Virus record (IMG/VR): IMGVR_UViG_3300048576_000525
Span: 1-36,978 of that record
Length of the DNA: 36,978 nucleotides
Strand: one strand, 5' to 3'
Origin: a virus
Lineage: Duplodnaviria > Caudoviricetes
The notes below the pieces were generated by a model that did no database searches, had not been told where the DNA came from, and saw nothing but the letters and a program-made list of their open reading frames with translations. Below are positions 7,975 to 35,562 of this stretch, piece by piece. A program made the translations under genes and the position numbers. Numbering within the stretch: position 1 is the stretch's first letter; the number at the start of each line of letters is the position of its first letter.

Positions 7975-7977
7975 GGT

Positions 7978-15132: not shown

Positions 15133-17004
15133 TCACCACGCCCCCCCGAAGCCGGTCATCCCTCCCCCGCCACGCCGCGGGGCGATCCGCCGGACGGGGG
15201 CGGTGGGGGCATCCTCGGCCTCGGGATCAGGCTCCGGTGCGGCCTGCGGCGCCCGGGCCTGCAGGTTGCGCTGGACCAGGGCCTCGAGGTCGCGGGGGGC
15301 GTAGATCTCCAGGGCGGCGTAGCTGTAGACCACGCAGTCCAACACCTCGTTCCGCGTGTCCGGACCGTCCTTCTTCTCGTAGGCGCGCCGCCCGGACTTT
15401 GTGCAGGGGCGCTCGGACAGCAGCTGTTCAATCGTCCCTTGGTCCACGTCATTCGGCAGATGGACGTAGCCTGGGCCTGGCTTCTCAATCGCGAGCTGGC
15501 CGTAGATCAGGTCCTTCGCCGAGACTCCGTCCACCAGGCGCAGGGAGCTTTTTTTGGTGGCCCTGCGCACCAGTGTGCGCTGCGGCTGGGTCGCGCCCTT
15601 CACAGGGTGCGCCAGGCCGCGCATCTTCGGGCGCTTGCAGAACGCGTAGACAGGCTTGTTGTAGTGCCCGCCCACGTCCAGGCCCACGGCCTTGATCCGG
15701 TGCCCGTCCCAGTCCTGCAGGAGCAGCTCCTCCAGGCGGTTCCATGGCTCCTGCGTCGCGAGGTTGCCCGGGATCACGCGGTGCTCGATCAGCCAGAGCT
15801 CCATCCCGACTCCCACACCCCAGACGCCCACCTCGAGGCGCTGCGGTGAGGTCTGGTTGTCCACGCCGGCCACCAGCAGGGCCACCCCCTCGGGGACCTC
15901 GCCGGTAACGTAGCTTTCCTGCCGCGCCCGGGCCAGCAGCCCATCCACCTGGAGGTCGTCCCCTTCCCTGGGGTCCCACCACTCGCCGCACTGCGTGTTG
16001 ACCCACACCTGCAGCGCCTTCGGGCCCTTCCGCTTCGCCCGCTGGAATTTCGCGACCAGCGAGGCCATGGACCGCACCATCAGCCCATGGACCTGGAAAC
16101 CAGCGTGGTCGTCCACCTCCGGGTGCTGCGCGATCCACCCGCCGCCCTCGGACTCGGCCCGGTTGATCGCCTGGCGGAGCTGGTGCTCCGTGATCTCGCA
16201 CCCGCCCCCCCGGCACGCGTACACGGGGTCCTTCGGGCGCCCGTCGAACACCACCTGGCGGAAGTCGCACACCTGGAGGTGCCCGCAGTGAGGGCAGCGC
16301 CACCACCAGAGCCTCCAGTCGGATTCCTTCAGGGAGTTTTCGATGCGGCTCCGGCCCTTGATCGTGGGGGAGGAGCAACGGTAGATCAGGCGCCGGCCCT
16401 CGAAATCGGACGTGCGGGCCTCCGCCAGCTCCTCGAAATCGCCCTCTTTCCCGGCGCTCTCGTCGATCGGGATGCGGTCGATTTCGTCCATCAGCAGATC
16501 GCGGATGGGCTGCTGGGCGAGCCCCGAGGGGACGTTCGCGCCCACGCACACCAGCACGCCGCCGGGGAATTCCTTCTCCGTGATCGTGTTCGAGGTGTTC
16601 CGGCCCTCCCCAATGCGCTCCGCGAGCTCCGGGCAGTCCCGGACCATCGGCATGAACCGGGTCTTCGACCACTTCTCCACGGCGTGGATCGTGGGGGCCA
16701 CCGCCATGATCGGGCCCGGGTTGAGGTGGATCCTGGACCCCAAGATGTTGTTCAGGATCTGCGTCTTGCCCCACTGGGAGGGCCCCGCCACGGTCACGAA
16801 CTGGATCCGGGGGACGCTGCAGGCGTCCATGATCCCGCGCTGGTAGGGGCGCTCATCGCAGGAGAACCGCCCCGCGGCTGCAGAATCCACAGCGCTGAGC
16901 ACGCGGTATGTCTCGGCCCACTGCGTGACGGTCAGGTCAGGCGGGGGCTCGAGCACCGCCGCAGCCTCGCGGACGGTGCCGGCGGGCGAGGCGGTCGCGA
17001 TCAC
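15133..17004 (-). CDS. terL: Terminase large subunit, lambda gpA family
   Basis: PPPDLTVTQWAE, PYQRGIMDA, SQWGKT Walker A, LLMDEID, SSPTIKGRSRIE, CPHCG, AGVDNQ, RNEVLDC. Confidence 0.96.
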   Translation of the reverse strand: MIATASPAGTVREAAAVLEPPPDLTVTQWAETYRVLSAVDSAAAGRFSCDERPYQRGIMDACSVPRIQFVTVAGPSQWGKTQILNNILGSRIHLNPGPIMAVAPTIHAVEKWSKTRFMPMVRDCPELAERIGEGRNTSNTITEKEFPGGVLVCVGANVPSGLAQQPIRDLLMDEIDRIPIDESAGKEGDFEELAEARTSDFEGRRLIYRCSSPTIKGRSRIENSLKESDWRLWWWRCPHCGHLQVCDFRQVVFDGRPKDPVYACRGGGCEITEHQLRQAINRAESEGGGWIAQHPEVDDHAGFQVHGLMVRSMASLVAKFQRAKRKGPKALQVWVNTQCGEWWDPREGDDLQVDGLLARARQESYVTGEVPEGVALLVAGVDNQTSPQRLEVGVWGVGVGMELWLIEHRVIPGNLATQEPWNRLEELLLQDWDGHRIKAVGLDVGGHYNKPVYAFCKRPKMRGLAHPVKGATQPQRTLVRRATKKSSLRLVDGVSAKDLIYGQLAIEKPGPGYVHLPNDVDQGTIEQLLSERPCTKSGRRAYEKKDGPDTRNEVLDCVVYSYAALEIYAPRDLEALVQRNLQARAPQAAPEPDPEAEDAPTAPVRRIAPRRGGGGMTGFGGAW

Positions 17005-17474
17005 GGCTCGTCCTCCAGGCGCTGCGCCTCGGCCACCAGCTCGCGGAGGCTGGCCCGCATCTCCCGGTCCAGGACATCCTGGCGCTCCGCCAGCGTCTGT
17101 CCATCCACCAGGCGGGGCGCCACGCGCCCACCGTAGCCCAGGAGGTTTTGCTTCAGGCGGCCGAGATAGGCGCTCCAGGCGCGCACGGCTCCAGCGCGGT
17201 CCACCAGGGAGCCCGCCATCTGGTCCCGCTTGAGCTCCGCCATGTCCGCGTCGGCTCGTTCCTTCCGCTTCCGGTCGTCTCCGGACTCCTCACCTGGCGA
17301 CAAATCGGGGTTCAGCCAGGCCCAAAACTCGGACCAAACGTAGTAGCAGCCTTGCCCGGAGCCGTGTCGCAGCTTCTCCAGGTGCGGATTCCGCTGGATT
17401 GTTCTCACTGTCCGCCCCAGCAGGGCCGCAAATTGCGGCTGAGAGAGGCGATTTAGGTCCATTTTCTCGTTCAT
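17001..17474 (-). CDS. terS: Terminase small subunit (Nu1-like)
   Basis: N-term HTH (LSQPQFAALLGRTVRTIQ), RKERADADMAELK..GSLV; GTGA-coupled to terL. Confidence 0.88.
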   Translation of the reverse strand: MNEKMDLNRLSQPQFAALLGRTVRTIQRNPHLEKLRHGSGQGCYYVWSEFWAWLNPDLSPGEESGDDRKRKERADADMAELKRDQMAGSLVDRAGAVRAWSAYLGRLKQNLLGYGGRVAPRLVDGQTLAERQDVLDREMRASLRELVAEAQRLEDEP

Positions 17475-17517
17475 GAGGCACCTTAAATGAGCGGCGACAT
17501 GCACAAATTGCCTTTAG

Positions 17518-17574
17518 CTAGCGAATCCAGGCGGGTTGCCGCGATACCCTTCCCACGGCCCCCCGGAAGGACCC
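17518..17574 (-). other. Lambda-like cos region (cosQ GGGTCCT + cosN-like)
   Basis: Minus strand GGGTCCT-N25-GCGGCAACC-CGCCTGGA-TTCGCTA, paralleling lambda GGGTCCT-N25-GCGGCGACC...TTCGCTA (lambda sequence from memory); just upstream of terS. Confidence 0.7.
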
Positions 17575-17609
17575 AAACTCATATGAATGTCGATGAGCCC
17601 ATGCGCACC

Positions 17610-18347
17610 TCATCGAGTCGCCTCGGCCATCGCGCGCCGCAGCTCGTCAGGGAACGTAGCCGCAGCCACACCTCCCACGGTGGGCACGAACTCCAGACGG
17701 GCAGGGATGCGCACGCGGTCCACGAGGCGGTAGAGCAGGCGCGTGCCTGCGGTGCGATGGATGGCCTTGACCTTGCGCCTGTGCGGGCCCATGCCCACGG
17801 CCACGTTGTCCAGCGTGAGGCCCTTCAGGCGTGCACGGCTGGCCTTGGTGAGCCCCTGATCCACGCGCTGGAGGATCAGCACCTGGCTCCGCACACGCAC
17901 GAGGAACGTGCGCTGATCGCCCACGATGCGGCCGCCCTTGTCCTTGTGGAGCTTGAGATTCTTGGGGTGCAGCTTGTTCGCCCGGCCGATCACCTTGGAC
18001 CTGAACACCTCGGCGTTGGGCTGCCACAGGCGCTTGCCGCCGTGGCGCACACGCTGGGCGCCCTGCTCGTGGTCGTCGAGGAAGTGCCGCTCGTCCGGGT
18101 AGGCGACCGACACCACCACGCGCCAGGTGGACTTGGTCGCGCGATCGGCCTTGGCGATCTTGATCCCGCGCACCACGAACTGCTCACGGCGCAGCTTGAA
18201 CTTGGACTTGAGCTTGCTGCGCTCGGCCTCCTGGCCCTTGTTCGCGCTGCGGTTGAGCGCGAGGCTCACGGCGTAGGGCAGCTGGCGCTGCTGGTAGTCC
18301 GTGAGCCAGCCGAGAACGGCGGTTGGATCGACGTGGAAGCGGATCAC
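17610..18347 (-). CDS. gpZ-like tail completion/neck protein, displaced upstream of cos
   Basis: GTG 18347 with AAGGAGG RBS; RQLPYAVSLALNRSA N-term, basic, C-term F..ELRRAM. Confidence 0.6.
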   Translation of the reverse strand: MIRFHVDPTAVLGWLTDYQQRQLPYAVSLALNRSANKGQEAERSKLKSKFKLRREQFVVRGIKIAKADRATKSTWRVVVSVAYPDERHFLDDHEQGAQRVRHGGKRLWQPNAEVFRSKVIGRANKLHPKNLKLHKDKGGRIVGDQRTFLVRVRSQVLILQRVDQGLTKASRARLKGLTLDNVAVGMGPHRRKVKAIHRTAGTRLLYRLVDRVRIPARLEFVPTVGGVAAATFPDELRRAMAEATR

Positions 18348-18622
18348 TTGGGCCTCCTTGGGCCGTAGTAGAGGGCCCGGATGTAGGACTCGCTGAGTCC
18401 CGCGTGCAGCGCCACGGCCTGGATGGCCTGCCGGGTGCTGCAGTGGGAGGAGAGGGCAGCCCGCACGAGGGCCGGCACCCTGGAGCGCAGGCGCTCGGAC
18501 CGGGCCGCCCGGAGGAGGGCCTGCTCGAGGCGGGTGTCCTCCTCGCGGTGGGGTGCCTCGACCTGGGCGAGGGCGTCCCGGATCTCCTCCGGGACCTGGG
18601 AGAGGTGGACCCAGCACGTCAC
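18344..18622 (-). CDS. Small HTH protein, possible late-gene activator (Mor-like C-terminus)
   Basis: AIQAVALHAGLSESYIRALYY helix-turn-helix; last gene before the late module. Confidence 0.45.
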   Translation of the reverse strand: MTCWVHLSQVPEEIRDALAQVEAPHREEDTRLEQALLRAARSERLRSRVPALVRAALSSHCSTRQAIQAVALHAGLSESYIRALYYGPRRPK

Positions 18623-19107
18623 CGCGGCCCCCTGCTGCCCCCTGGAGCCTTCGAACGGGTCCGGGTGGTGGGGTTGGTGCACCTAGGGGCCTTCGGCGGT
18701 TCTGGGAGGTCCTGGAAGCCGAGGGCGAGGAGGGCCTGATAGACCTCCTCCACGGAGGTGGCCCAGAAGGCGGGGCAGCCCCGGGCAGCCTGGCGGGCGA
18801 GGAAGGCCACCTGGAGCGCCGTGGGCCGGTTGCCCGGCACCTTGACCTCGCAGTAGGCGTTCCGCCCGCGGAACTGGGCAGGCACGGCGTGGCTGGCGTC
18901 CAGCTCCACGACCAGATCCGAGTGCCCGGGCTCGCCGAACCGCACCGGGCGGCCCTTGGGCCCCCAGGGGTGCTGGGAGCCGCCCACCCACACCTGCCCG
19001 GTGTTGACGCGGCGCACCAGCCCGATCCGGCAGGACTTGAGGTAATCGCTGATTTTGCGCTGGATTGCAGTCTCGGGGTTGGAGCCGCGGGGGCCACGGG
19101 CGGTCAT
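18619..19107 (-). CDS. VRR-NUC domain nuclease (Holliday junction resolvase-like)
   Basis: ETAIQRKI..YL, PGHSDL, CEVK.PG.RPT.LQ..FL, SVEEV. Confidence 0.88.
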   Translation of the reverse strand: MTARGPRGSNPETAIQRKISDYLKSCRIGLVRRVNTGQVWVGGSQHPWGPKGRPVRFGEPGHSDLVVELDASHAVPAQFRGRNAYCEVKVPGNRPTALQVAFLARQAARGCPAFWATSVEEVYQALLALGFQDLPEPPKAPRCTNPTTRTRSKAPGGSRGPR

Positions 19108-19118
19108 GCGGCACCCCC

Positions 19119-19304
19119 GAAACGGACATTCCGGACACGGACACGGGGGGTATATATACGAGAGGAAGAAAAGCACTTAGATGGAAAACGGACATTTCGG
19201 ACACACGTTATCTGGCCGGAATATCCGAATCCGGGAAGAGCTATGCATTTCCTCTCTCTCTCATAATACGCGTAGTGTCCGACGTGTCCGAAATGTCCGT
19301 TTTC
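19119..19304. repeat. Iteron cluster, putative replication origin
   Basis: Five CGGACA plus three inverted TGTCCG; perfect 21-bp inverted repeat 19184-19204 / 19284-19304; AT-richer spacers; directly after the primase-helicase. Confidence 0.75.
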
Positions 19305-21687
19305 ACGCTTCGTGGTCATGGGAAGCCTCTTCAAAAACAGGATGGAAGTGCAACATTCGATTAGTGCTTGACGTTCTCGGGCCCATGGAAATGTCCCAGG
19401 TGCCGAGGCGGAGCCGGCCTGGGACGCCCATGGCGCGCTCCAGCTGGTCCAGCCAGCGGCGGAGCTTCCGCGTGCCGGTCTCGTCCGGGCTGCAGGCGAA
19501 CACCTGTGCCACCCTCGCCTCGTGGTAGCTCGCCTGCTCGGCGAGGTCGTGGCGGACGTAATCCTGGAGGGATTGGAACCACGGGAGCCCCTGGCGGATG
19601 GCCAGATCCTTCGCGGCCTGGGCGGCTGCGATCACCTCGTCCGGGTTGAGATGGAGGCGAGCGCTTGCGAAGTCCAGGGCCGCGTCGAACACCTGGGAAC
19701 GGGTCCACCTCGCGGGCGGGATGGGGAGCCCCCGGAAGTCCCTATAGAGCAGGATCCCGGCCCGGTGCACCACCTGGCGCCCCCCTGCGTCCAGCCACGT
19801 GTAGAACGCGTCGAAGGCGGCGTTGCGTTGGGCCTTCGTGCTGATGGGGCTCGGCTCGAGCTGGACGAGGTTCACGCGGTCCTTGGTGGCCTCGTCGTCC
19901 TCGTTGATCTTCAGGGCGTTGGAGCTGAATACCACGGGCTTCGGAGCGATGGTCATGTCGCTTCCGAACTTCTTGCGCAGCTGCAGAGGTTCGCCGGAAG
20001 CGTAGGTTTTCAGATCCTCGAGGTAGGCGGCGCTGAGGAACTGGTCCAGTTCGTCCCGGAAGCAGATCGGGAGGTGCAGGACGGATTCCGTCAGCCAGCC
20101 TCCCTCCCCGCCGTCGAACCGCTGGGAGCCGTAGGTGCGAGGCTCGCCCGCCACCAGGAGGGCGCAGATCTTCGCGGCCGTGCCCTTCCCTGTCGCGGCT
20201 CCGCCGAAGAACCAGGTGATTGGCAGGAACCCGCAGGGCTCCCCTGCCTGCCACCGCTCCTCCGCCCAGAGGGCCGAGAGCGCCGTCGCGAGGCAGAACG
20301 CGGCCACCCGCTCCCCCACCTCGGAATCGGGGACGCCGGGGATCCGCACGTGCAGGTAGGCCCTGCGCAGCCGCTCTACCGTGGCGTCCAGGTCCGCGGG
20401 CGTGGGTGCGCCTGGGTCCTTCCCCGTCCAGGGTTCCCAACCACGCTCCCGGGCATAGCCGGCCCTCTGGGCCTGGGGGATCTCCGTCCAGTGGCGCCCG
20501 TCCTCCAGGAACTGCGGGGGGAGCCAGGCGGGGGACATGTGCGTCTCCGTGGGCCCGCCTTCCACCGTGGCCGCGAGGTCCGGATAGTCCTCTCGCAGCT
20601 TGCGCATCAGGCGGTGCCCGAGGAGCGCCGTGAACTCGTGCAGGCCCTCGGCCACGGGCATCTGATCGTTGATGCGGGCCCGGATCCCGAAGTACCGCCG
20701 GCCGCCGCGAGGGTGAGCGCAGATCCCCGCGCACCGCTGCCCGAAGCGCCAGGCCTCGAGGTCCCGCATGCCCTGGCCCTTGGCCCGGAGGGCACCCTCC
20801 AGGGCCCGGCGCGCGATCTTGGCGAGGCCGTGCTCCTCCCCGGGCGCAGGCACGCTGAGGGCGTGCTCGATCGCCTCTAGGAGGGCGTCCCAGCGCTTCG
20901 CCGGGTCCGCCTCGCGGTAATCCTTCGCCAGCCCGCAGCCGGGCAGGATCGCAGGCGTGGCCACCCGCGCCAGTCGGGTCCGTGCGGACTTGCCGGAGGG
21001 GTCCTGGTCCGTGACCAGGAGGGCCGGCACACCGGGGAAGTGCGCCTGGAGCGTGCGCTCCAGATCCGCGGCGCCGAAGCCGGCCGGGATGGAGCAGAAG
21101 GCGTAGCGGTGCGGCTCCCCCGCGTTGAACGCGTCCCAGGCTGCGGCGATCGCGTCCCACGTGCCCTCGAAGATGACCACGGTGGACGGCTGCAGGCGGG
21201 GATTGGCGATGTAGAGGCCCCGGGCCCCGAGCATCTTGGTCCACTTGGTGCAGGGGGCACCGCTGGCGCGCTCGATCTGGCGCACCTCGAGGCCCACGAA
21301 CTCGGCCCCGAGATACTGCGGCGCCAGCGTCAGGGCGGCGCTCTGGCTCTCCGCGCGGATCCAGTCCTTCTCCGTGGGGAGGAGGGGCTGGACCTGCTGA
21401 ATCGCCTTGCGACTGCACACGTAGACGCCGCAGTGCTCCGCAAGGAAGGCCGCCCCGAAGCCCCGGGCGCCTTCCGCCTCGGCCGCCCGGTAGAGCAGCT
21501 CGTGCGGCTGGAGCTCCACGTGCTGGAGGAGGGCCCCGCTCTCGGCGTCGAACACCACGCGGCCCCGCCCGTCGTGCCCGTGGAAGCACACGGCGGTGAG
21601 GCGGCCGTCCCGGTAGAACCGGGGCTCGTCCTTCGCGGCGATCGCGTCTTCGCGTCCACAAACGGGGCAGATCAGGCCGCATTTCAT
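19303..21687 (-). CDS. Primase-helicase (Zn finger, TOPRIM, SF3 helicase)
   Basis: CPVCG...CFHGH; IFEGTWDAIAA and TDQDPSG (TOPRIM); GGAATGKGT Walker A, FRDE Walker B, FSSN motif C. Confidence 0.85.
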   Translation of the reverse strand: MKCGLICPVCGREDAIAAKDEPRFYRDGRLTAVCFHGHDGRGRVVFDAESGALLQHVELQPHELLYRAAEAEGARGFGAAFLAEHCGVYVCSRKAIQQVQPLLPTEKDWIRAESQSAALTLAPQYLGAEFVGLEVRQIERASGAPCTKWTKMLGARGLYIANPRLQPSTVVIFEGTWDAIAAAWDAFNAGEPHRYAFCSIPAGFGAADLERTLQAHFPGVPALLVTDQDPSGKSARTRLARVATPAILPGCGLAKDYREADPAKRWDALLEAIEHALSVPAPGEEHGLAKIARRALEGALRAKGQGMRDLEAWRFGQRCAGICAHPRGGRRYFGIRARINDQMPVAEGLHEFTALLGHRLMRKLREDYPDLAATVEGGPTETHMSPAWLPPQFLEDGRHWTEIPQAQRAGYARERGWEPWTGKDPGAPTPADLDATVERLRRAYLHVRIPGVPDSEVGERVAAFCLATALSALWAEERWQAGEPCGFLPITWFFGGAATGKGTAAKICALLVAGEPRTYGSQRFDGGEGGWLTESVLHLPICFRDELDQFLSAAYLEDLKTYASGEPLQLRKKFGSDMTIAPKPVVFSSNALKINEDDEATKDRVNLVQLEPSPISTKAQRNAAFDAFYTWLDAGGRQVVHRAGILLYRDFRGLPIPPARWTRSQVFDAALDFASARLHLNPDEVIAAAQAAKDLAIRQGLPWFQSLQDYVRHDLAEQASYHEARVAQVFACSPDETGTRKLRRWLDQLERAMGVPGRLRLGTWDISMGPRTSSTNRMLHFHPVFEEASHDHEA

Positions 21688-21830
21688 GCCTGGCCCCCGA
21701 GCGCCTTGCGGGCCCTGGCGAGGGCACGCTCCTGCTCACGGGTGCGTTGCCCCGCGGATTCGCAGAGCCAGCGGCACACGGCGTCATCAGGCGCGGTGAG
21801 CAGCCAGCGTAGAAAGTCGTTCTGGCTCAC
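21684..21830 (-). CDS. 48-aa hypothetical protein
   Basis: MSQNDFLRWLL...LGGQA, GTGA/ATGA-coupled at both ends. Confidence 0.55.
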   Translation of the reverse strand: MSQNDFLRWLLTAPDDAVCRWLCESAGQRTREQERALARARKALGGQA

Positions 21831-22192
21831 GGTTTCATCTCCCGGGCGCGTGCGTGGTGTTCCTCGCAGCGCTCAGAGCAGACGCCACACCAGCGCTGGC
21901 CCCGGATGGCCTCCCGGCACCCGCAGACGATGCAGATCCCGAGGGCCCTCCAGGCCGGGCGGCGGCGGGCGAGGTTGGCTTTGGATTTCCTGGCGGCCAC
22001 GGCCGCGCAGGCTGCACAGCGGCAGCCCGGCGCGCCGTTGCGCCCCGGCTTGGCAGGCTCGCGCCCGCACTGGACGCAGAGCCCAGCGGCCCGCAGCCCG
22101 GCGCGCCGTTGCGCCTGGTAGCCGCGGTTGTAGGAGCGGCGGTGGGAGGCCCTCCCGGGCGCGTGGTCAGCAGGCATGGGGGGCGGGCTCAC
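21827..22192 (-). CDS. Cys-rich protein with two zinc-ribbon repeats
   Basis: GLCVQCG...CAAC and GICIVCG...CGVC; GTGA-coupled. Confidence 0.65.
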   Translation of the reverse strand: MSPPPMPADHAPGRASHRRSYNRGYQAQRRAGLRAAGLCVQCGREPAKPGRNGAPGCRCAACAAVAARKSKANLARRRPAWRALGICIVCGCREAIRGQRWCGVCSERCEEHHARAREMKP

Positions 22193-22491
22193 GAGCACCA
22201 CCCGCGGAAGCACCAGCGGCGGCCGGTGGTGGCGTTGCGGACTTCGACGCGGGCGGCTCCGAGGCCGATAGCCCACACGCAGGCGCCCACCAGCCACCAG
22301 GAGGCGTCCGCGCTGGCGTGGTAGAGGGGGCGGAGCCGGTCGATCAGGTGGACGCCCATCTCACCCTTGGGGACCGTGAGGACGCCCGCCTTGTTGAGCA
22401 GTTCGTGGGCGCTCTCCCAGTCGCTCCTGATGTAGATGTCGGCCTCGGTTCGGTTGCGCAGGTCTTCGGGGTGCAGGCGGGGGCTAACCAC
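22189..22491 (-). CDS. Hypothetical protein
   Basis: 100 aa, GGAGG RBS before GTG. Confidence 0.6.
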   Translation of the reverse strand: MVSPRLHPEDLRNRTEADIYIRSDWESAHELLNKAGVLTVPKGEMGVHLIDRLRPLYHASADASWWLVGACVWAIGLGAARVEVRNATTGRRWCFRGWCS

Positions 22492-22569
22492 GGCTCACCT
22501 CCAGCTCTCTAGCGTGTCTTTCCGTCTCATTACCGATTTTCCAGATAGACATTGGTTGGTCCTGTGTGT

Positions 22570-22631
22570 GTTGCGCTGAGAACTACGTTTGGTTGCGCTG
22601 ATTTGTTAGGTCGCCTAATTGAAAGTTAGGC
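22570..22631 (+). other. attI-like integron recombination site
   Basis: L box GCCTAAT (22613-19), 5-nt spacer, R box G/TTAGGC (22625-31); upstream direct repeats GTTGCGCTGA (22570, 22592); resembles attI1 GTCGCCCTAAAACAAAG/TTRRRY. Confidence 0.65.
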
Positions 22632-22874
22632 GCCCAGCGCCAGCCTTGTTCTCTCTTTCAGGTTTTCCAACCATTCCGTGCCCGCTGCATCCCCAGCCTG
22701 AACATCAGCCGCGAATACCTGCCAATCCGCCAGGATCTTTTTCAGCCGCTTGCACTCATTCACTTTCGCTTCATGGCAGCGCCTTGCATCAACAAGGTTT
22801 CGTTCAAGCATTAGCTCCAGCCTAACCGTTGCATCAACCCGGACGGTGCCTTCGCTGGTCGGTTCATTCGTCAT
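22626..22874 (-). CDS. Cassette 1 hypothetical protein (82 aa), antisense to attC
   Basis: AAAGGA RBS and ATG inside the attC1 loop; TAA lies in the attI R box. Confidence 0.65.
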   Translation of the reverse strand: MTNEPTSEGTVRVDATVRLELMLERNLVDARRCHEAKVNECKRLKKILADWQVFAADVQAGDAAGTEWLENLKERTRLALGA

Positions 22875-22919
22875 TCTGGTTCCTTTCCCCGGCACCGCCG
22901 GTTATGCCAATCGTTGGGC
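22820..22919 (+). other. attC site 1
   Basis: GCCTAAC-CGTTG-CATCAACC...GGTTATG-CCAATC-GTTGGGC, inner stem CGGTGCC/GGCACCG. Confidence 0.9.
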
Positions 22920-22933
22920 GACACAGATCTACC

Positions 22934-23101
22934 TCAATCCACGTATTCAACGGTGACTTTCCAGTGGTCCGTCTTGCCATCTGGCCGACCCGTTTCAACG
23001 GGTATCTCACACTTCGACGCGCCCATGCGGTCAAGGTGCTGCACCAGCGCAAGGGCTGGAGCATCGGCAGTCTTCAGTTCGTCTTCAAGCTCTTTGCACA
23101 T
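22934..23101 (-). CDS. Cassette 2 hypothetical protein (55 aa; not in the ORF track)
   Basis: GGAGG RBS; MCKELEDELKTADAPALALVQHLDRMGASKCEIPVETGRPDGKTDHWKVTVEYVD. Confidence 0.65.
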   Translation of the reverse strand: MCKELEDELKTADAPALALVQHLDRMGASKCEIPVETGRPDGKTDHWKVTVEYVD

Positions 23102-23139
23102 CGTTTCCTCCGGGGGCGGCTGTTTATGGAGGGCCAGCC

Positions 23140-23207
23140 GCCCAACCCATCGTTCAACCGGACGTTCGGGCTAGCGCCCGCCCGCCGGTTAACTCCATAC
23201 GTTAGGC
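23140..23207 (+). other. attC site 2
   Basis: GCCCAAC-CCATC-GTTCAACC...GGTTAAC-TCCATAC-GTTAGGC, canonical layout with the extra base in L''. Confidence 0.92.
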
Positions 23208-23513
23208 CTGTTCAGCATTCGGAAAATTGGGGTTCGGGATGGTTTCATCTTCGATGTTCACGGCCTGGATCATCGGTATCCCATCGTCAACCCAAGTGAA
23301 GGTATCCAGTGCATATCCCGTCTCGCGTTGCACCTTGCGGAACTCGAACAAACAGCAGACAAACTCCTGAATACAAGCGGAAAGCCGATCATCCGGCACA
23401 TTGGCAAAGTCAGCGATTGAAACAATGTGATATTCGGCAGGGCCTAACCCGTCGCTCAACCTTGACGCTGCCTCTTCCGGCAACCCCCCGGAATTTCCGG
23501 ATACTTCAACCAT
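23202..23513 (-). CDS. Cassette 3 hypothetical protein (103 aa), antisense to attC
   Basis: AAAGGAG RBS and ATG inside the attC3 loop; TAA in the R' box of attC2. Confidence 0.7.
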   Translation of the reverse strand: MVEVSGNSGGLPEEAASRLSDGLGPAEYHIVSIADFANVPDDRLSACIQEFVCCLFEFRKVQRETGYALDTFTWVDDGIPMIQAVNIEDETIPNPNFPNAEQA

Positions 23514-23570
23514 TTCATCTCCTTTCATCGTTTCGCTGCGGCAACGCCGCTTAACTCCGAGGCGTTAGGC
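23442..23570 (+). other. attC site 3 (slightly degenerate L')
   Basis: GCCTAAC-CCGTC-GCTCAACC...GCTTAAC-TCCGAGGC-GTTAGGC, inner stem CGCTGCC/GGCAACG. Confidence 0.8.
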
Positions 23571-23774
23571 GCCCTCTTCTTCCCACCCGCAGTCCCAGGA
23601 GAAGCGGTCATGGGTTCCGTCCTGGTAGGGGTTTGTGTTCTTCGGGTGGCCATATTCCCTCGCCCTCGCCCCAGCTAGCGCCGGCGGAAGGAGCACGAGT
23701 TCCTTCCCACAGGAGGTGCACCTGAAGTCGGGGCTCATCTCGTCGTGGTGGCAGCGTCGTGCGTCAGCAGGCAT
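23565..23774 (-). CDS. Small protein with an Rmf/CrpP-like motif
   Basis: GAGGAGG RBS; NPY....DRFSWDCGW motif and CTSC; its TAA is in the last GTTAGGC core. Confidence 0.6.
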   Translation of the reverse strand: MPADARRCHHDEMSPDFRCTSCGKELVLLPPALAGARAREYGHPKNTNPYQDGTHDRFSWDCGWEEEGA

Positions 23775-25227
23775 GGGGGACGTCCTCCTCAGAACCGCTC
23801 GGACAGCACGCGCCATGCGAGCGCAGCGCACTGTGGGACTTGGCCGTTGCCGAGGGCCTTGAGGCGTCCAACACGGCGAGGGACGCCGCTCGCAACGCGC
23901 GGAAGGTCTGCGGGTTCAGCGGCCCAAGGTCCGTCCAGCCACGGGGCCAGCCCATCAGCCACTCCACCCATTCCGGGTTGAGGGGGCCGTTCAGTTCCGC
24001 AGGGGTGACCATCGTGCGGAGTTTGGCCCGCGCACCGCTGCCGCCCCACTTGCAGAGGGCCGCTCCCCCCGTGTCCGTCACGGCTGTCGGTGTGGGCCAC
24101 AGGGCCTTGGAGGCCATCGTCTGAAGGCTGGGGCGCGTCCTCCCGGTCCTCCCGGCAGAGCCGCCCTGGTTCGTCCCGTAGCTGGTCGCCGTTGGCGTGG
24201 GCCAGAATCCAGATCCGCTTTCGGATGTGCGGAGCACCGGCATCGTCCGCGCCCAGCACGCCCCATTCCGCAGCGAACCCCAGCGCGGCCAGGTCCCCGA
24301 GAACGGTACCGAGTCCCCGAGAAGTGAGCAGTGGGGAGTTCTCCACGAAGACGTAGCGGGGTCGAACCTCGCGAACGATCCGTGCAAACTCCCGCCAGAG
24401 GCCGGAGCGGGCACCGTCGATTCCTTCGCCTCGACCAGCGGCGCTGATGTCCTGGCAGGGGAAGCCTCCGGCGATGAGATCAACGTGGCCTCGCCAGGGG
24501 TTGCCGTCGAAGGTCCGAACGTCGTCCCACACGGGGAACCAGGGGAGGATGCCGTCCCGCTGCCGCTGGAGGAGGACAGACCGAGGGTATTCCTCCAGTT
24601 CAACGGCGCAGACTGGCACATGGCCGAGAAGGAGTCCGCCGAGGATTCCGCCCCCGGCTCCGGCGAAGAGGTGCAGTTCACGAAGTGCCACATGCACCGC
24701 CCCTCCCGCACCGCCGCGAGCACCTGGCAGGCACATGGATCCTCCAGCGGAATGAGGCCCAACGTCTTGCAGGCAGCGGCGTAGACATTCCAGTCGTCGA
24801 CCGTGTAGCACCCGGTCAAGGTGTAGCGGTCGATGATGCGCTTCCGTGCGGCCCTGGCCTCGTCCAGCTCCGCCCGTGCCTCGTTCCGCTCCGCGGTGAG
24901 CGTGCCGATGGTCTCGGCCTGGGCGCGGATGGTCTCCCGGGCCTCCACGAGCAGCGCCTCCGCCTGGGGGCCCAGGGTGATGCCCTTGGGCTTCGCCAGC
25001 GGCTTGCGCGTCTGGATTTCGTAGCCGACGGGGAGCCAGCGATCGGAACCGGCTGGCACCACGACCTTGAGCTCGGCCACGGCCGGGTTCTCGTTGAAAA
25101 GACGGATGGCCTGCTCCACGTTGGCGGCCATGACCTCGGCCACCAGCTGGCGGCGGCCGTGGTGGCTCAGCCTGGGGGGGCCGACCAGCACGTAGCGGCG
25201 CATAGTGGGGGTGGCAGCGGCGCTCAT
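23764..25227 (-). CDS. Overlapping-frame methyltransferase beta polypeptide (own ATG at 24693), in frame with an upstream 178-codon hypothetical ORF
   Basis: WPTP repeats and LNPEWVEWLMGWPRGWT (motif IX-like) in the alternative frame; ATG 25227 is ATGA-coupled. Confidence 0.7.
   Translation of the reverse strand: MSAAATPTMRRYVLVGPPRLSHHGRRQLVAEVMAANVEQAIRLFNENPAVAELKVVVPAGSDRWLPVGYEIQTRKPLAKPKGITLGPQAEALLVEARETIRAQAETIGTLTAERNEARAELDEARAARKRIIDRYTLTGCYTVDDWNVYAAACKTLGLIPLEDPCACQVLAAVREGRCMWHFVNCTSSPEPGAESSADSFSAMCQSAPLNWRNTLGLSSSSGSGTASSPGSPCGTTFGPSTATPGEATLISSPEASPARTSAPLVEAKESTVPAPASGGSLHGSFARFDPATSSWRTPHCSLLGDSVPFSGTWPRWGSLRNGACWARTMPVLRTSESGSGFWPTPTATSYGTNQGGSAGRTGRTRPSLQTMASKALWPTPTAVTDTGGAALCKWGGSGARAKLRTMVTPAELNGPLNPEWVEWLMGWPRGWTDLGPLNPQTFRALRAASLAVLDASRPSATAKSHSALRSHGACCPSGSEEDVPHAC
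23789..24691 (-). CDS. C5 cytosine DNA methyltransferase, main (alpha) polypeptide
   Basis: LFAGAGG (I), GGFPCQDIS (IV), ENSP (VI), PHIRKRIWI (VIII), RLKALGNGQVP (X); motif IX not seen in this frame. Confidence 0.92.
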   Translation of the reverse strand: MALRELHLFAGAGGGILGGLLLGHVPVCAVELEEYPRSVLLQRQRDGILPWFPVWDDVRTFDGNPWRGHVDLIAGGFPCQDISAAGRGEGIDGARSGLWREFARIVREVRPRYVFVENSPLLTSRGLGTVLGDLAALGFAAEWGVLGADDAGAPHIRKRIWILAHANGDQLRDEPGRLCREDREDAPQPSDDGLQGPVAHTDSRDGHGGSGPLQVGRQRCAGQTPHDGHPCGTERPPQPGMGGVADGLAPWLDGPWAAEPADLPRVASGVPRRVGRLKALGNGQVPQCAALAWRVLSERF

Positions 25228-25703
25228 CCTTCCACCTCCTGGGGCAGGGACGTGACCACCACCTGGCTCTTCAGGAGGTCCACCGTGTTCTGGAAGGCCC
25301 GCTCCAGCACGGCTGGCGGGAGATGAAGGGCGTAGACAGAGCCAGAGCGCGCCATACCAGCCATCACGCAATCGGTGATGAACTCCAGCACGTCGATGAG
25401 GTTCACGTCGTCGGGCACACCATCAGGACTATTCAGATGATGGCGGTTGACCTTCCGATGGTTGTCCCACCACCCCGTCTGTTCAAAGCCGGTGATGAAG
25501 TCGGCGTGGAACTGATCGAGAGCGTCTAGCTTGTCAGGGTCGTGGTGGACTCCAGCCTTCTCGATGAGCACAGCGAAGAGGTGCATGCCGTCGTAGACGT
25601 CGCGGCAGTGCATGAGGCTGCTGAGCTGGAGCTGCTGTTTCGTGACCTTGGAGTAGTCGCAGGTTCGGGTGTCCGCAGTCGGGCTCGGGGAGATATGGAT
25701 CAC
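25224..25703 (-). CDS. DUF5662-like HD-superfamily phosphohydrolase
   Basis: H...HDPDK...H...NRHH...LIDVLE...D..A pattern. Confidence 0.65.
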   Translation of the reverse strand: MIHISPSPTADTRTCDYSKVTKQQLQLSSLMHCRDVYDGMHLFAVLIEKAGVHHDPDKLDALDQFHADFITGFEQTGWWDNHRKVNRHHLNSPDGVPDDVNLIDVLEFITDCVMAGMARSGSVYALHLPPAVLERAFQNTVDLLKSQVVVTSLPQEVEG

Positions 25704-25879
25704 GGCTTCACCTCCTGGGCGGAGGCGCGGCGGCCCAGGCGGTCGATCTCCGCCTCAAGGTCGCGGAGCTCCTGGGACCTGATCTCCTCCAGCGCGCGGC
25801 CGAAGTCGAGCATGGAGCTATGCGCGTGCTTGGTCTTGCTCGTCAGGCGGGCGAACGCTCTCGCTATGGTCGTCCTCAT
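25700..25879 (-). CDS. 59-aa hypothetical protein
   Basis: GGAGG RBS, coupled at both ends. Confidence 0.55.
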   Translation of the reverse strand: MRTTIARAFARLTSKTKHAHSSMLDFGRALEEIRSQELRDLEAEIDRLGRRASAQEVKP

Positions 25880-26334
25880 TTCCCACCTCCATTCCGGGGC
25901 CCGTTCCAGCGGGTGCTGATGCGGGCGGATACGCAGCGCTCCTTGGCGCGCCACAGGCCGATCAACGCCAGGAACAGGACGAGCACCACGAGGGCCCCGG
26001 GGAGATCCCCGGAGGCCATCAGCGCGGCCACCACGTCCGGGAGGAACCACAGGGCCGCGAGGGCCCCGGCGGCAAGCACCGCCAGGGCCAGCACGGTTGA
26101 AACGCGGATGCCGCCCATCATCGCGAGGCGGATGCGCTCGGCCTTCTCGTGCCGCAGCTCATCGCGCTCGGCCAGTACGCGGCGCCAGTCGTCCACGTGG
26201 AGCACCACGCGCTGGCTGCTTTCGCCGAGGGCGAAGCCCTCATCGAACATGCGCAGGAGGTCGTCAGCGGGCAGGCTCAGCGTCCCACCAGGGCCGGTCT
26301 CGAGCGCGGCATTGCGGAGATCTTCGAAGTTCAT
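25876..26334 (-). CDS. Hypothetical membrane protein
   Basis: 152 aa, two C-terminal hydrophobic helices, GAGG RBS. Confidence 0.65.
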   Translation of the reverse strand: MNFEDLRNAALETGPGGTLSLPADDLLRMFDEGFALGESSQRVVLHVDDWRRVLAERDELRHEKAERIRLAMMGGIRVSTVLALAVLAAGALAALWFLPDVVAALMASGDLPGALVVLVLFLALIGLWRAKERCVSARISTRWNGPRNGGGK

Positions 26335-26342
26335 GGCCCACC

Positions 26343-26930
26343 TCAGAACGGGATGTCGTCGTCGCCGAGGGGGTCACGCATCGGGGCCGGCGCAGCCGGG
26401 AGGGCGGCGCCAGGCAGGGGCGGCAGCTGCACGGACGGGTCGATCGGCAGCAGGGCGGGCGCGGCACCCGTGAGGATCAGGGTGATCTTGTGGTAGTGCT
26501 TCCCGTCGTACTGGCGGAAGCCCTTGTGCTTCGCGATGATCTCCACGATCTGGCCGGAGGCCTTCTCGAGCTTCACGGTGTCGAGCTGCCCGTTGGTGTG
26601 GGCGCCCAGGAGCTTCACGGCCATCTGCAGCGTCGCGAGGTTCTTTTCCATGGCGGCCTGGGCCTTCTCGGGCGTCAGGCCGGTGGGGATGTCGCGGGCG
26701 TCCAGTGCGATCAGCAGCTCGTCCGAGCACTGCCCGTTCTCGACCCGCAGGCCGATGTAATCCTTGCCGCTGTTGTCGAAGTGCTTGATGTAGGCCTTGC
26801 GCACGGTGGCCGTGTGCTTGGTCCAGCCATTGGCGTCGCAGGGGAAGGGCCGGCCGCCGGTGCTGGTGGGCTCCGTGCTGGTGTCCGCGATGCTCTGGGC
26901 GGTCATGCCGGGGATGGGGATGAGGGTCAT
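26343..26930 (-). CDS. Single-stranded DNA-binding protein (phage type)
   Basis: Pro/Ala linker and acidic tail DDDIPF; directly downstream of the Sak4-like gene. Confidence 0.7.
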   Translation of the reverse strand: MTLIPIPGMTAQSIADTSTEPTSTGGRPFPCDANGWTKHTATVRKAYIKHFDNSGKDYIGLRVENGQCSDELLIALDARDIPTGLTPEKAQAAMEKNLATLQMAVKLLGAHTNGQLDTVKLEKASGQIVEIIAKHKGFRQYDGKHYHKITLILTGAAPALLPIDPSVQLPPLPGAALPAAPAPMRDPLGDDDIPF

Positions 26931-26961
26931 GGTTCAGTCCTTTTCGAATGGGGGATGGGAT

Positions 26962-26985
26962 GGGGCGGCAGCGAACCGCCGCCCC
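26962..26985 (-). other. Intergenic UUCG hairpin
   Basis: GGGGCGGCGG-TTCG-CTGCCGCCCC, no U-tract. Confidence 0.5.
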
Positions 26986-26991
26986 GGTTGG

Positions 26992-28296
26992 TCACTGCTG
27001 GAAGCGCTGGTGGAGCCAGGGGATGAACGCGGCGCGCTTCTGGGGGTCCTTCAGCTGGGCCACCACCGCGGCGCAGAACTTGACGCTGAGGGAGGTCCAG
27101 TCCGCCGCGCCGTCCTTCGTGGGCTTGGCAGCGCCTTCCTTGGAGAGGGCGTACGCCCACATGGCGGTGGTGCGGACCTTGTGCTCGGCGCAGAGGTCCA
27201 GCAGCTCCCGCGCGTCTTCGGGCTTGGCCCGCTCCGGGCTGATGGCGTCCACGAAATCGGAGGCGGCCTGGGAGACCTGCGCGGGGGCCTTCTCCTCCGT
27301 GCGCTCCTCCAGGATCGTGCCCGCGACCTTCTTGTAGCCTTCGGGGTCCTTCTCGGGATCCGGCACGCGGGGGTCCGGCGCGGTGAGGGACTGGCGCAGC
27401 TCGGACTTGGCGGCCTCGGGATCCTCCGCGTAGCGGGCCTCCCATCGCGCCAGATCAGCCTTGCGCTCGGCCTCGGGCGTCTTCGCCGTGCTGGTGGCCC
27501 AGCTCGCGAGGAGGTCCAGCCACACCTGATCCACGGCCGGAGCCGCAGGCTCAGGGGCGGGTGCAGGAGGTGCAGGAGGTGCAGGAGCATCCACGGGGGG
27601 CAGCTCGAGCTTGCCCTCGGGCCCGGCCTCGATCAGGCGGAGGTAATCCAGGCAGGGGCCCTGCCACACGGCAGGGACCCAGGGCAGGCCGCAGCGCTGG
27701 GAGTGCTCGGCGGGCGTGGTGTCCACCACGTAGCCCAGCTCGGCGTCGAAGCGCGCCTCGGCGGTGGGCAGGAGCTTGCCGGGGAGCTCCTCCACGCTCC
27801 TGCCCATGCCGTCCGGCTGGATGCGCTCCACGAGCCCGGAGCGCTTGGACACGCTGCGCCCGATCACGACGCCGGGGAGGCCCGTCAGCTGGGCGGCCTT
27901 GACGACGGCCAGCGCATAGTCGCGGAGGTCGCCGTACTGGGACAGCTCCAGCTTCAGGAGCACCTGCGAGCCCTGGCCCGCGCGCTCCTTCAGCCAGCGC
28001 GGAATCGCGAGCGTCAGCTCCGTGAAGCTGTCGAGCACGATGCGGTCGAACTGCGCGGTCTTCTCGGGGTTGCCCAGGATTTCGAGGATCTTGTCCAGGT
28101 CGTCCAGGCTCTCCGGGACCATGCCCACGGCAGCCGGGTTGAGCTGCCGCAGCACGGAGGCGGCCTTGGGCTCGGTGAGGAGCACCAGCGGCTTCCCGCC
28201 GCACGTGGCCCAGGTGGATTTGCCACCGCCTGTCACCCCGTGGAGGAACATGAACGGGCGGCAGATGGCGGGGGTTTCGGCGGTGAGGTACTTCAT
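26992..28296 (-). CDS. Sak4-like (AAA_24) ATPase/recombinase with C-terminal extension
   Basis: HGVTGGGKST Walker A, IVLDSFTE Walker B; flanked by Gp157 and SSB. Confidence 0.8.
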   Translation of the reverse strand: MKYLTAETPAICRPFMFLHGVTGGGKSTWATCGGKPLVLLTEPKAASVLRQLNPAAVGMVPESLDDLDKILEILGNPEKTAQFDRIVLDSFTELTLAIPRWLKERAGQGSQVLLKLELSQYGDLRDYALAVVKAAQLTGLPGVVIGRSVSKRSGLVERIQPDGMGRSVEELPGKLLPTAEARFDAELGYVVDTTPAEHSQRCGLPWVPAVWQGPCLDYLRLIEAGPEGKLELPPVDAPAPPAPPAPAPEPAAPAVDQVWLDLLASWATSTAKTPEAERKADLARWEARYAEDPEAAKSELRQSLTAPDPRVPDPEKDPEGYKKVAGTILEERTEEKAPAQVSQAASDFVDAISPERAKPEDARELLDLCAEHKVRTTAMWAYALSKEGAAKPTKDGAADWTSLSVKFCAAVVAQLKDPQKRAAFIPWLHQRFQQ

Positions 28297-28409
28297 CGCG
28301 CACCCCCGGCCCAGCCGTTGATCTTGCCGTCAGGCTGCCCGTGCTTCAGCCAGCCGCGCGCAACGCCGAAGGTCAGGAGGACGATCATCACAATCTGGGG
28401 CGCGTTCAT
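28293..28409 (-). CDS. 38-aa membrane peptide
   Basis: MNAPQIVMIVLLTFGVARGWLKHGQPDGKINGWAGGAR, ATGA-coupled at both ends. Confidence 0.55.
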   Translation of the reverse strand: MNAPQIVMIVLLTFGVARGWLKHGQPDGKINGWAGGAR

Positions 28410-28921
28410 CGGATCACCGGATACGTCGTGGAGCCTTCGGACATCACCACGCCCTCGGGCAGGGGCTCACCCGCCTTCAGCGCGTCCTTCAGGGCGGCCT
28501 TGTTCAGCTCGGGATCGCGGACCCGGTAGAACCGGGCGTCCAGCTCCCACGCGTTCACGCCGGGCTTCAGTTCGAAGGCCTGCGTGGAGCGGGTCTGGTT
28601 GTAGACCGTGAACCGGGGCGTCTTGACCTTGCCGCCCAGCGCCTCGAGGGCCGGGACGAGCAGGGACTTCAGGCGGGCCTGGGCGCTCTCCAGGGACTCC
28701 TTGCGCCCCTGCAGGCGCCCGATCTCCGCGGCCAGCGCCTCAGCCTCGAGGCCCATGGACTTGACGACGCAGGCCGTGGCTTCCACCTTCTCGGCGCCGG
28801 CGGCTTCGATCGCCTCCCAGGCCGCCTGGATCTCGGGCGTCAACTCGCCGCCGGACTCCTCCAGCGCCTGCGCGATGCGCTCGAACTCGATCGGGATCTC
28901 GTAGAGCCGGAGGGTGCTCAC
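28406..28921 (-). CDS. Siphovirus Gp157-family protein
   Basis: LYEI...GELTPE...EKVE...EI.RLQ.RK...KVKTPRFTV...LNK..LK.ALKAG. Confidence 0.85.
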   Translation of the reverse strand: MSTLRLYEIPIEFERIAQALEESGGELTPEIQAAWEAIEAAGAEKVEATACVVKSMGLEAEALAAEIGRLQGRKESLESAQARLKSLLVPALEALGGKVKTPRFTVYNQTRSTQAFELKPGVNAWELDARFYRVRDPELNKAALKDALKAGEPLPEGVVMSEGSTTYPVIR

Positions 28922-29721
28922 TTCTCACCTCCGTCTTCCGCCGGGACGTCCCAGCTGTAGAGGTCGATCGCACGCTGGAGGGCAGCCCAGGCCTTGGGCC
29001 GGTCCTGCGCCCAGAGCGCACGCCACACGGCCTCGGAGGCGGGCCAGGCCTTGCGCCTGAGGCCGGCGGCCACACCCGCCTCCTCGAGCTGGTCCAGGGC
29101 CGCGTCGAACAGCTGCTGCTGCTCCCCAGGGGGGCGCAGCTCGAACGGCTCCTCGGCATCGGCGGGGGCCATCTCAGGCTCGGCGGAGGCGTACTGGGCC
29201 AGCCAGGAGGCGATCTCCTCACCCGTGGGGATGGAGGTATGCTCGGCGCCCTCGCGCATGGCGACGTGCAGGGCGGTGTAGGCGGCCTTGCGGTCCTTCT
29301 TGAAGGCCTCGAGCCACTCCGTGGTGTTCACCTCCGCGCCATCCGATTCCGAGCGGTCGCAGAGCTGGCTCAGCAGGCTGTCGAAAGCCTCCTCCTGGTC
29401 CTCACCGGAGAGGTTCGGGAAGACCAGGAGCTCCAACGGCAGCTCCGGCAGTTCCTGCGCGGCGGCCCCATCGAACGGCAGGGGCACACCCGGGGCGGGA
29501 ACCTCAGGCACCGGGTCCGGACGTGGGCCGGTCTCGTACACGTCCTCCTCCTCGAGGCCCACGGCGCTGTCCAGCACCTTGGCGGCGCGCTTGTAGTAGT
29601 CCCGCGCGTCCTTCTTGTCCTTCAGCGTGGGCTTGGCGGTGTATTCCAGCCGCGTGGCCGCACGGGCACCAAGCTGCAGCGCCAGGTCGATCGCGGTGGT
29701 GGGGGTGGTGGAGTCAGCCAT
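28918..29721 (-). CDS. Acidic hypothetical protein with an internal duplication
   Basis: 267 aa; two related segments Q..FD..L.QL...W......D...A...L. Confidence 0.7.
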   Translation of the reverse strand: MADSTTPTTAIDLALQLGARAATRLEYTAKPTLKDKKDARDYYKRAAKVLDSAVGLEEEDVYETGPRPDPVPEVPAPGVPLPFDGAAAQELPELPLELLVFPNLSGEDQEEAFDSLLSQLCDRSESDGAEVNTTEWLEAFKKDRKAAYTALHVAMREGAEHTSIPTGEEIASWLAQYASAEPEMAPADAEEPFELRPPGEQQQLFDAALDQLEEAGVAAGLRRKAWPASEAVWRALWAQDRPKAWAALQRAIDLYSWDVPAEDGGEK

Positions 29722-32376: not shown

Positions 32377-32401
32377 AACGGAGCCCCGCGCTCCGTTTTT
32401 T
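32377..32401 (+). terminator. Rho-independent terminator (repeat unit 1)
   Basis: AACGGAGC-CCCGC-GCTCCGTT followed by a T run. Confidence 0.8.
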
Positions 32402-35552: not shown

Positions 35553-35562
35553 GGGGAAGCCA

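Follow-up and report, generated by a model that had tools for sequence, protein, structure and literature searches.

The DNA analysed here, referred to throughout as the window, is a 36,978-base wastewater provirus record of the Caudoviricetes (Duplodnaviria; IMG/VR record IMGVR_UViG_3300048576_000525) with about 70% G+C and a parent contig of 232 kb. At roughly 22500-23570, between phage genes at 22189-22491 and 23565-23774, it carries an island of about 55% G+C that holds an integron-type array: an attI-like docking site followed by three gene cassettes, each with its own attC recombination site. Integrons as they are taught are bacterial, and the cassette promoter Pc transcribes their promoterless genes, which occupy the attC top strand. 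In the window, the open reading frames (ORFs) of all three cassettes lie on the opposite strand, which is that of the phage genes. The array comprises the following features; attC scores are those of R1, a covariance model of structure and sequence built from 65 distinct bacterial attCs and no phage sites.

22570..22631, + strand: attI-like docking site, with a 10-bp direct repeat GTTGCGCTGA (22570-79 and 22593-602), then GTCGCCTAATTGAAAG|TTAGGC
22626..22913, top strand + (TTAGGC...G): cassette 1, nearest the docking site, with G|TT boundaries at 22625/26 and 22913/14
22914..23201, top strand +: cassette 2, with G|TT boundaries taken from sequence and fold
23202..23564, top strand +: cassette 3, farthest from the docking site and abutting the small phage gene
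22820-22919, bottom strand on -: attC A (GCCTAAC...GTTGGGC), 100 nt, extrahelical G16 and T24, R1 score 53.0 bits, E 4.8e-11
23140-23207, bottom strand on -: attC B (GCCCAAC...GTTAGGC), 68 nt, extrahelical G16 and T23, R1 score 55.9 bits, E 8.6e-12
23442-23570, bottom strand on -: attC C (GCCTAAC...GTTAGGC), 129 nt, extrahelical G16, R1 score 30.3 bits, E 3.5e-05
22874-22626, - strand: ORF1, 82 aa, with AAGGA 6 nt before the ATG, both in the attC A loop, and its TAA in the GTTAGGC of 22625-31
23101-22934, - strand: ORF2, 55 aa, with GGAGG and ATG within the cassette, 39 nt outside attC B, and a TGA stop
23513-23202, - strand: ORF3, 103 aa, with AAAGGAG and ATG in the attC C loop and its TAA in the GTTAGGC of 23201-07

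All three attC sites consist of imperfect inverted cores, RYYYAAC ... GTTRRRY, around L boxes and a variable loop. The 5' arm of the + strand carries one extra C (GCAT-C-AACC; GTT-C-AACC), which corresponds to an extrahelical G in the 3' arm of the - strand, 16 nt from the 3' end. As passages of Nivina 2016 (PMC5027507) describe it, the wild-type bottom strand has its extrahelical bases on the arm opposite the cleaved 5'-AAC-3', and the numbering G16, T23 and T24 is that of the mutants of attCaadA7, attCoxa2 and VCR2 in the same paper. The - strand of the window fits this rule, with the bulged G16 and T23/T24 on the arm opposite the AAC triplet. As a control, the attC of aadA1 in In2 of R100 reads GTCTAAC-aattc-GTT-C-AAGC ... 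GCTTAAC-tcaagc-GTTAGAT on the aadA1 coding strand, the same layout as that of the window + strand. When both strands of the 36,978 bases were searched at E <= 1, R1 matched exactly attC A, B and C, all on -, and it matched the R100 site (49.7 bits) on the strand opposite aadA1. Along the + strand the order is docking site, three body-attC units, phage DNA, which is the canonical order of an integron; read on the opposite strand, the array would open with an attC lacking a body. These four tests, of bulge placement, R100 layout, R1 strand and array geometry, establish that + is the attC top strand and - the recombining strand. The DNA fold z-score of attC B was -3.18 on - versus -1.91 on +. With three co-oriented sites within 751 bp, all on -, and no integron integrase, the array is a cluster of attC sites lacking an integron integrase (CALIN), a term that the IntegronFinder text (Cury 2016, PMC4889954) uses for at least two attC sites within 4 kb on one strand without intI.

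The canonical layout, with the ORF on the top strand and upstream of its attC, is found in none of the three cassettes. Read along the gene strand, each cassette instead begins with its own attC, followed by the gene body, and in cassettes 1 and 3 the attC loop holds the ribosome-binding site (RBS), the ATG and about 20 leader codons. The attC arms encode EGTVRVDATVR in ORF1 and EAASRLSDGLG in ORF3, and the first 24 residues of ORF3 are attC-encoded. Both genes end in a TAA, the final A of which closes the cassette (RYYTAA|C). With cleavage between this A and the C, the mobile unit ends on the stop codon, and each gene moves complete. An earlier note on this DNA had taken + as the attC top strand from the extra L'' base, a call now borne out by the bulges, R100, R1 and the array geometry. 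It had also described RBS-backed ORFs at 22874-22626, 23101-22934 and 23513-23202, all on -, antisense to the attC sites and co-oriented with the phage, with RBS, ATG and the two N-terminal sequences given above encoded by attC in cassettes 1 and 3, and all of this is seen in the sequence. The three genes that it had ending on a TAA in GTTAGGC are ORF1, ORF3 and the phage gene at 23565-23774.

Evidence that the - strand ORFs are genes is strongest for ORF3, for which homologous DNA was found in three other contigs (L009, L010 and L011). The ratio of nonsynonymous to synonymous substitution (dN/dS) of the ORF3 body is 0.09-0.17 in the - frame, and 30 of its 49 differences from the L010 version fall at third codon positions. 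Of the possible frames, the one on the gene strand alone stays open across the four homologues, and stops interrupt every + frame of cassette 3. All three ORFs have homologues of matching length and start: five of 69-93 aa for ORF1, and for ORF2 eight of 55-74 aa, seven of which begin MCKELE and the eighth of which has MCKELE after a 19-residue N-terminal extension. In a public collection of called genes, four of five versions of the - strand ORFs are present, compared with none of five + strand ORFs; the exact sequence of ORF1 is a called gene there, in a cluster of eight, and ORF2 is a called gene there too. Log-likelihood ratios from a model of codon-position composition, for which 500 codons from other phage cassettes served as the training set, were +4.1 for ORF1 and +8.0 for ORF2, versus -7.2 to -14.6 for four + ORFs, and the + ORFs have no Shine-Dalgarno (SD) sequence and start on TTG. 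The support for ORF1 and ORF2, from SD and ATG, composition and public gene calls, is weaker than that for ORF3. The 90% clusters of ORF2 (P0032), ORF1 (P0028) and ORF3 (P0042) include members of 278, 96 and 120 aa, possibly products of read-through or fusion between neighbouring cassettes elsewhere.

The cassette proteins gave no match above threshold in Pfam, NCBIfam or PHROGs, and none to the toxin-antitoxin families in these collections. Below threshold, ORF3 matched phrog_28704 (E 0.0022) and the product of cassette 5 of the viral record L001 matched Exonuc_VII_S (E 0.014). The predicted structure of ORF3 has a mean predicted local distance difference test (pLDDT) score of 63, with residues 1-21 below 50, and this model found no match at E <= 0.001 when searched with Foldseek against PDB and BFVD. 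The best three matches of an Atlas search were set aside, as they scored 0.80, a level reached by a third of shuffled proteins. We infer that the cassette products are small phage accessory proteins.

The same layout recurs in four other phage or phage-like contigs:

L001, viral record of 67.9 kb: six cassettes, flanked by the same small gene on one side and an identical 22-bp docking site on the other
L140, 34.5 kb, from a record that is 76% complete: five cassettes, the array running up to a docking site that differs by one letter
L010: one cassette between an ORF with its TAA in GTCTAAC and a 3-letter variant of the docking site
L009: two cassettes

Together with the three of the window these make 17 cassettes, and in 17 of 17 the ORF is on the bottom strand, that is, the strand matched by R1. 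R1 also matches all 14 attCs of L001, L140, L010 and L009 on the gene strand. The TAA stop lies in RYYTAAC in 14 of the 17 cassettes, and by-eye reading placed SD and ATG in the loop in 11 of 17, comprising all eight sites of at least 100 nt in the window, L001, L009 and L010 and three of the five in L140. The phage-linked class of cassettes that the earlier note had proposed is accordingly found, 17 of 17 being built alike in five phage or phage-like contigs. The earlier note had also asked whether homologues are phage early genes flanked by attC in the same inverted orientation: ORF3 does recur in such cassettes, and relatives of it also occur as plain genes without attC, in viral contig L002 and metagenome contig L011. 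The ORF upstream of the L010 cassette shows a DPPY motif by eye, yet it has no Pfam match. BLAST of the region against phage records and plasmids gave no match, scans of viral contigs with ORF1 and ORF2 alignments found none, and neither did a search of viral contigs for the type-D loop pattern; L138, the one extra locus that another loop pattern gave, proved to be a chance match with no attC.

The window and L001 have little else in common. When positions 17001-30000 of the window were compared with 12.3 kb of L001, the DNA matched only in the small gene (222 nt, 99.55% identical), in cassette 3 and in an attC. Cassette 3 (23201-23525, 325 nt) is 100% identical to both copies of the ORF3 cassette in L001. 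The integrases of the two phages are unrelated (best BLASTP E 0.022), that of L001 being P4-type. Since only these elements match and the integrases are unrelated, the platform and its cassettes are common to phages whose DNA, over the stretches compared, is otherwise almost without similarity. The small gene and the docking site act together as a single shared module. L001 contains two copies of the ORF3 cassette (5959-6325 and 6669-7035), with 367 of 367 bases identical; what is duplicated is an attC and the body next downstream on the gene strand, and one copy adjoins the docking site, an arrangement that excision followed by reinsertion would produce. A near-identical attC loop and leader (MDELVSKADELP...) stands ahead of two different gene bodies, at 5332-5458 of L001 and 536-662 of L009, and in protein P0008 the leader of ORF3 is fused to an unrelated body; reassortment of leaders and bodies has therefore taken place. 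The 5' part of attC C shares a 66-nt exact block with the second attC of L140, and its 3' arm is that of the ORF3 cassette of L001. This hybrid make-up suggests an exchange within shared loop sequence.

Crossover at the docking site falls between G22625 and T22626, at the end of the array, and the body of the first cassette directly abuts the site. The docking 22-mer (22610-22631) is identical in L001, is a one-letter variant in L140 and has three substitutions in L010. The left half of the docking site is GTCGCCTAA. The simple sites are similar, GTCGCCTAATTGAAAG|TT in the phage and GTCGCCCTAAAACAAAG|TT in attI1. The site is at the end of the small phage gene, and insertion at its G|TT places the bottom strand of a cassette on the phage coding strand. 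A 20-mer of the docking site was found in none of the metagenome contigs searched, and no wastewater contig had the empty docking site joined directly to the small gene, which is uninformative as contigs drop rare forms. An attI-like string in L058 was set aside; it does not adjoin an IntI and may be an attC remnant.

Searches for an integron integrase (TIGR02249, cut-off 265 bits) gave best scores of 22.7 bits in the window and 35.9 bits in the whole L001 record, and no hit in the L140 record. Tyrosine recombinases are encoded at 31085-32302 of the window and at 7539-8807 and 9153-10187 of L001; the L140 record, 76% complete, gave no tyrosine recombinase match. A consensus scan of 21800-26200 found no promoter-like site on either strand, Pc included, and no terminator-like site on the - strand. 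Wastewater sequencing runs of nine studies contain parts of the array region, runs X1 and X5 being probably DNA and X15 and X16 RNA libraries. Contigs from wastewater start or end at G|TT boundaries (22625-22850, 22911-23207 and 23200-23516), and one X1 contig joins cassette 2, from 22911 onward, to a different upstream attC end. The duplicated cassette of L001, the presence of the same cassette at different array positions and the branching of contigs at G|TT may be read as indirect signs of mobility.

For a bacterial baseline, one genome per prokaryote species was scanned for the stem motif of the window sites in the - orientation, which returned 127 loci, mostly in Betaproteobacteria, with IntI1 homologues of 40-100% identity in 15 of them. 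For each bacterial attC the best ORF of at least 55 aa was taken in each orientation and searched against Pfam at E <= 1e-4. Matches were obtained for 23 of 83 top-strand ORFs (APH, Barstar, GNAT, glyoxalase, SDR and others) versus 0 of 62 bottom-strand ORFs, which confirms that the strand matched by R1 is normally non-coding in bacterial attCs. Rules based on ORF length were noisy, one giving 65 canonical, 29 inverted and 35 ambiguous of 129 sites and a second giving 66, 32 and 14, with 13 without an ORF, of 125; for this reason the Pfam-supported count was adopted. Because the scan pattern limited loops to 35 nt, long coding loops in bacteria are not detectable by it. A tblastn search with nine phage proteins, eight from cassettes plus the small flanking one, found no match at E <= 1e-3 in 123 bacterial loci. 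The attCs of two metagenome-assembled genomes (MAGs), L061 (Casimicrobiaceae) and L071 (an uncultured betaproteobacterium), have a 3' arm, GTTGAGCGACGGGTTAGGC, identical to that of the phage type-C attC, which hints at a host clade or a source of the sites.

Phage CALINs and phage integrons are already published (Qi, Rajabal, Ghaly, Tetu, Gillings 2023, PMC9892861), and in the sections of that paper that concern them the CALINs resemble the present array in having attC-bounded cassettes, a phage location, no intI and a DNA methyltransferase nearby; the same source reports phage attCs as IntI1 substrates in the form of bottom strands. The window array differs from what these sections describe in that all of its genes are on the bottom strand, most of the genes start in attC, and an attI-like site is conserved across dissimilar phages. 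How genes are oriented with respect to attC is not discussed in these sections; in the main text of Qi et al. the words 'antisense' and 'opposite' do not occur, and 'orientation' occurs twice, once of the vector oriT. With the class 1 integron In2 of R100 the array shares the attC architecture (R'' - 5 nt - L'' with the extra base ... L' - R'), the G|TT junction and the order of attI followed by body-attC units. In contrast to In2, it has no intI or Pc, its genes are on the opposite strand, attC precedes the gene, and the attC loops are long (in sites of 100-129 nt) and coding. A share of the toxin-antitoxin cassettes of sedentary chromosomal integrons lies in reverse orientation. Such reverse cassettes carry their own promoter and form a minority in canonical arrays, whereas the window has no promoter-like site, no toxin-antitoxin match and a wholly reversed array. 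Expression independent of Pc is known for some chromosomal-integron cassettes (Richard et al. 2024, PMC13108822). A search of the full-text literature, with subscription journals and supplements outside its scope, found no paper that describes cassettes with backwards genes, attC loops that encode protein or a phage docking site without an integrase.

The reading that we regard as probable is that of an integrase-less integron-type array in a prophage operon, with its genes on the attC bottom strand, likely exchanged in trans by a host IntI and likely transcribed with the phage operon. A host IntI, probably from a betaproteobacterium with an IntI1-like enzyme, would insert folded bottom strands at the phage docking site. 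Because this site is oriented such that the bottom strand of a cassette comes to lie on the coding strand of the phage, a cassette would be useful there only if its gene is backwards, and phages would circulate a pool of such cassettes. Transcription of the array would start at an upstream phage promoter, an early one in the proposal of the earlier note, and take in the flanking phage genes; as that note also suggested, the attC hairpin in the mRNA may modulate translation. Placed in a canonical integron, the same genes would face Pc and stay silent, following the rule given in passages of Nivina 2016 (PMC5027507).

Host intI genes are SOS-induced, as are prophages. On a wider and more tentative view, to which we give somewhat less than even weight, the array would be a mirror-image integron of phages of wastewater Betaproteobacteria, in which a conserved docking site at the end of an early gene borrows the SOS-induced host IntI and small accessory genes are exchanged between unrelated phages. 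The cassettes would then make up a separate pool, with RBS, start, gene and stop moving as one unit on the recombining strand. Since this strand is also the non-template one, folding of the attC hairpin would be aided by transcription, and expression would thereby be coupled to mobility.

Several observations count against the reading of an IntI-exchanged, phage-transcribed array. The recombinase is assumed to be an IntI, because none was found in the window, L001 or L140 records. The RNA-library contigs (from X15 and X16) that cover 23213-23500 and 22698-22873, in ORF3 and ORF1, are strandless and may be DNA carry-over. The L box of attC C pairs poorly and the site has the weakest R1 score (30.3 bits), both owing to its hybrid origin; as a mispaired hybrid it may no longer recombine, and on account of this poor pairing the oldest cassette may be fixed in place. 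The attC-encoded leader of ORF3 is relaxed (dN/dS 0.34-0.59) and may matter as DNA rather than as protein. Stop-free + frames run through cassettes 1 and 2, and the dN/dS values cover ORF3 only, there being no homologous DNA for ORF1 and ORF2. Three variant letters of ORF2 in wastewater contigs (23049, 23059 and 23064, hand count) affect the second, first and second base of their - frame codons and would all change a residue, although they are too few to weigh. Local alignment of the docking site with attI1 of R100 scores 23, which 35 of 2000 shuffles reach, and the attI1 likeness is for that reason only suggestive; the attI regions of 11 IntI-bearing bacterial loci are not alike and are unlike the phage site. 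Nor is the baseline proof against backwards bacterial cassettes, because the phage cassette genes also have no Pfam matches, and the cruder ORF-length rule called 32 of 125 bacterial sites 'inverted', none of them with a Pfam match.

Among other explanations, the one that survives best, though we think it unlikely, treats the docking site as an ordinary secondary target of attG type, at which a chance IntI-mediated attC x attG insertion made a junction that was then reused, the orientation arising from later selection. IntI1 does insert at many genomic sites with a short consensus, and insertions near a resident promoter can be expressed, as the preprint on this route describes (Loot et al., bioRxiv 10.1101/2022.09.11.507474); off-platform cassettes, resident promoters, the G|TT junction and IntI in trans are common to both cases, and here too there is no intI nearby and the attI1 likeness is suggestive. 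The attG sites of that source are, however, many and dissimilar, whereas the phage arrays reuse one conserved site with up to six cassettes: the 22-bp sequence is identical in L001 and near-identical in L140 and L010, and the window and L001 share almost nothing else in the stretches compared. Each of the four sites holds a different set of cassettes, and the duplicated L001 cassette adjoins the site, as at a reused entry site. The attG explanation also leaves unaccounted for the fact that 17 of 17 cassettes, in the backwards orientation, come with a translation start and a stop of their own.

It is considerably less probable that a phage tyrosine recombinase moves the cassettes and that the sites are merely attC-like. 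Such recombinases are encoded in both the window and L001, but the two are unrelated despite an identical docking site and an identical cassette, and L140 gave no match in its 76% complete record. The sites moreover fit a model of bacterial attCs, 15 of whose loci have IntI1 homologues, down to the G16 and T23-24 bulges. Least credible of all is the passive pick-up, through illegitimate recombination or an imprecise excision event, of a piece of a bacterial chromosomal integron, in which the - ORFs are antisense artefacts and the + ORFs the real genes: phages do carry host integron fragments and CALINs (Qi et al. 2023, PMC9892861) and + frames are open through cassettes 1 and 2, but the - frame of ORF3 has a dN/dS of 0.09-0.17 and all + frames of cassette 3 have stops, the + ORFs combine TTG starts and no SD with negative composition scores and 0 of 5 called genes, the junctions fall exactly at G|TT on both sides, and 0 of 9 phage proteins match the 123 bacterial loci of the same attC family (tblastn, E <= 1e-3).

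The array sits among phage genes that are likewise on the - strand, including those for a lambda-type terminase, portal, capsid, C-5 DNA methyltransferase and AAA_24 ATPase. Its neighbours and the integrase of the prophage are:

23789..24811, - strand: C-5 cytosine DNA methyltransferase (PF00145, E 5.4e-28), upstream of the array and co-oriented with it
23565..23774, - strand: small phage gene, about 69 aa from the ATG at 23774, in an ORF listed as 23565-23831
22189..22491, - strand: phage gene that comes next after the docking site in the downstream direction, with GGAGGTGA ahead of its GTG start
31085-32302, right end: tyrosine integrase of the window prophage

The start of the small phage gene at 23774 was read by eye from the GAGGAGG upstream of it, and its TAA stop lies within the last GTTAGGC (23564-70). 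Its match to PF04957 (RMF-like) is weak (E 6.8e-4) and below the cut-off; the gene is of a zinc-ribbon or RMF-like kind, and its 99.55% identity with L001 spans window 23563-23784 and L001 4850-5071. The product of 22189..22491 had no family match in profile searches of the Pfam, PHROGs and NCBIfam type. Just downstream of the docking site, the - strand ORFs 21827-22297 and 22189-22491 overlap by about 100 bases, and the longer of the two has weak matches to HNH-endonuclease PHROGs (E 0.004-0.007). Directly beyond the integrase, at 32400-36978, are type I restriction-modification genes, an hsdR-like one of 1050 aa and an hsdM-like one cut by the end of the window, which are probably host flank.

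Taken together, these results describe an integron recombination grammar that is here used in reverse, inside phages without an integrase. If our reading is true, phages exploit the integron integrases of their hosts to trade early genes, which would be plausible candidates for counter-defence or host takeover. There would then be a pool of cassettes that standard pipelines mis-orient or treat as 'empty', and attC loops would double as translation-initiation regions and leader peptides. Because ORF3 is found as a cassette in some places and as a plain phage gene in others, the finding would also bear on how cassettes arise.

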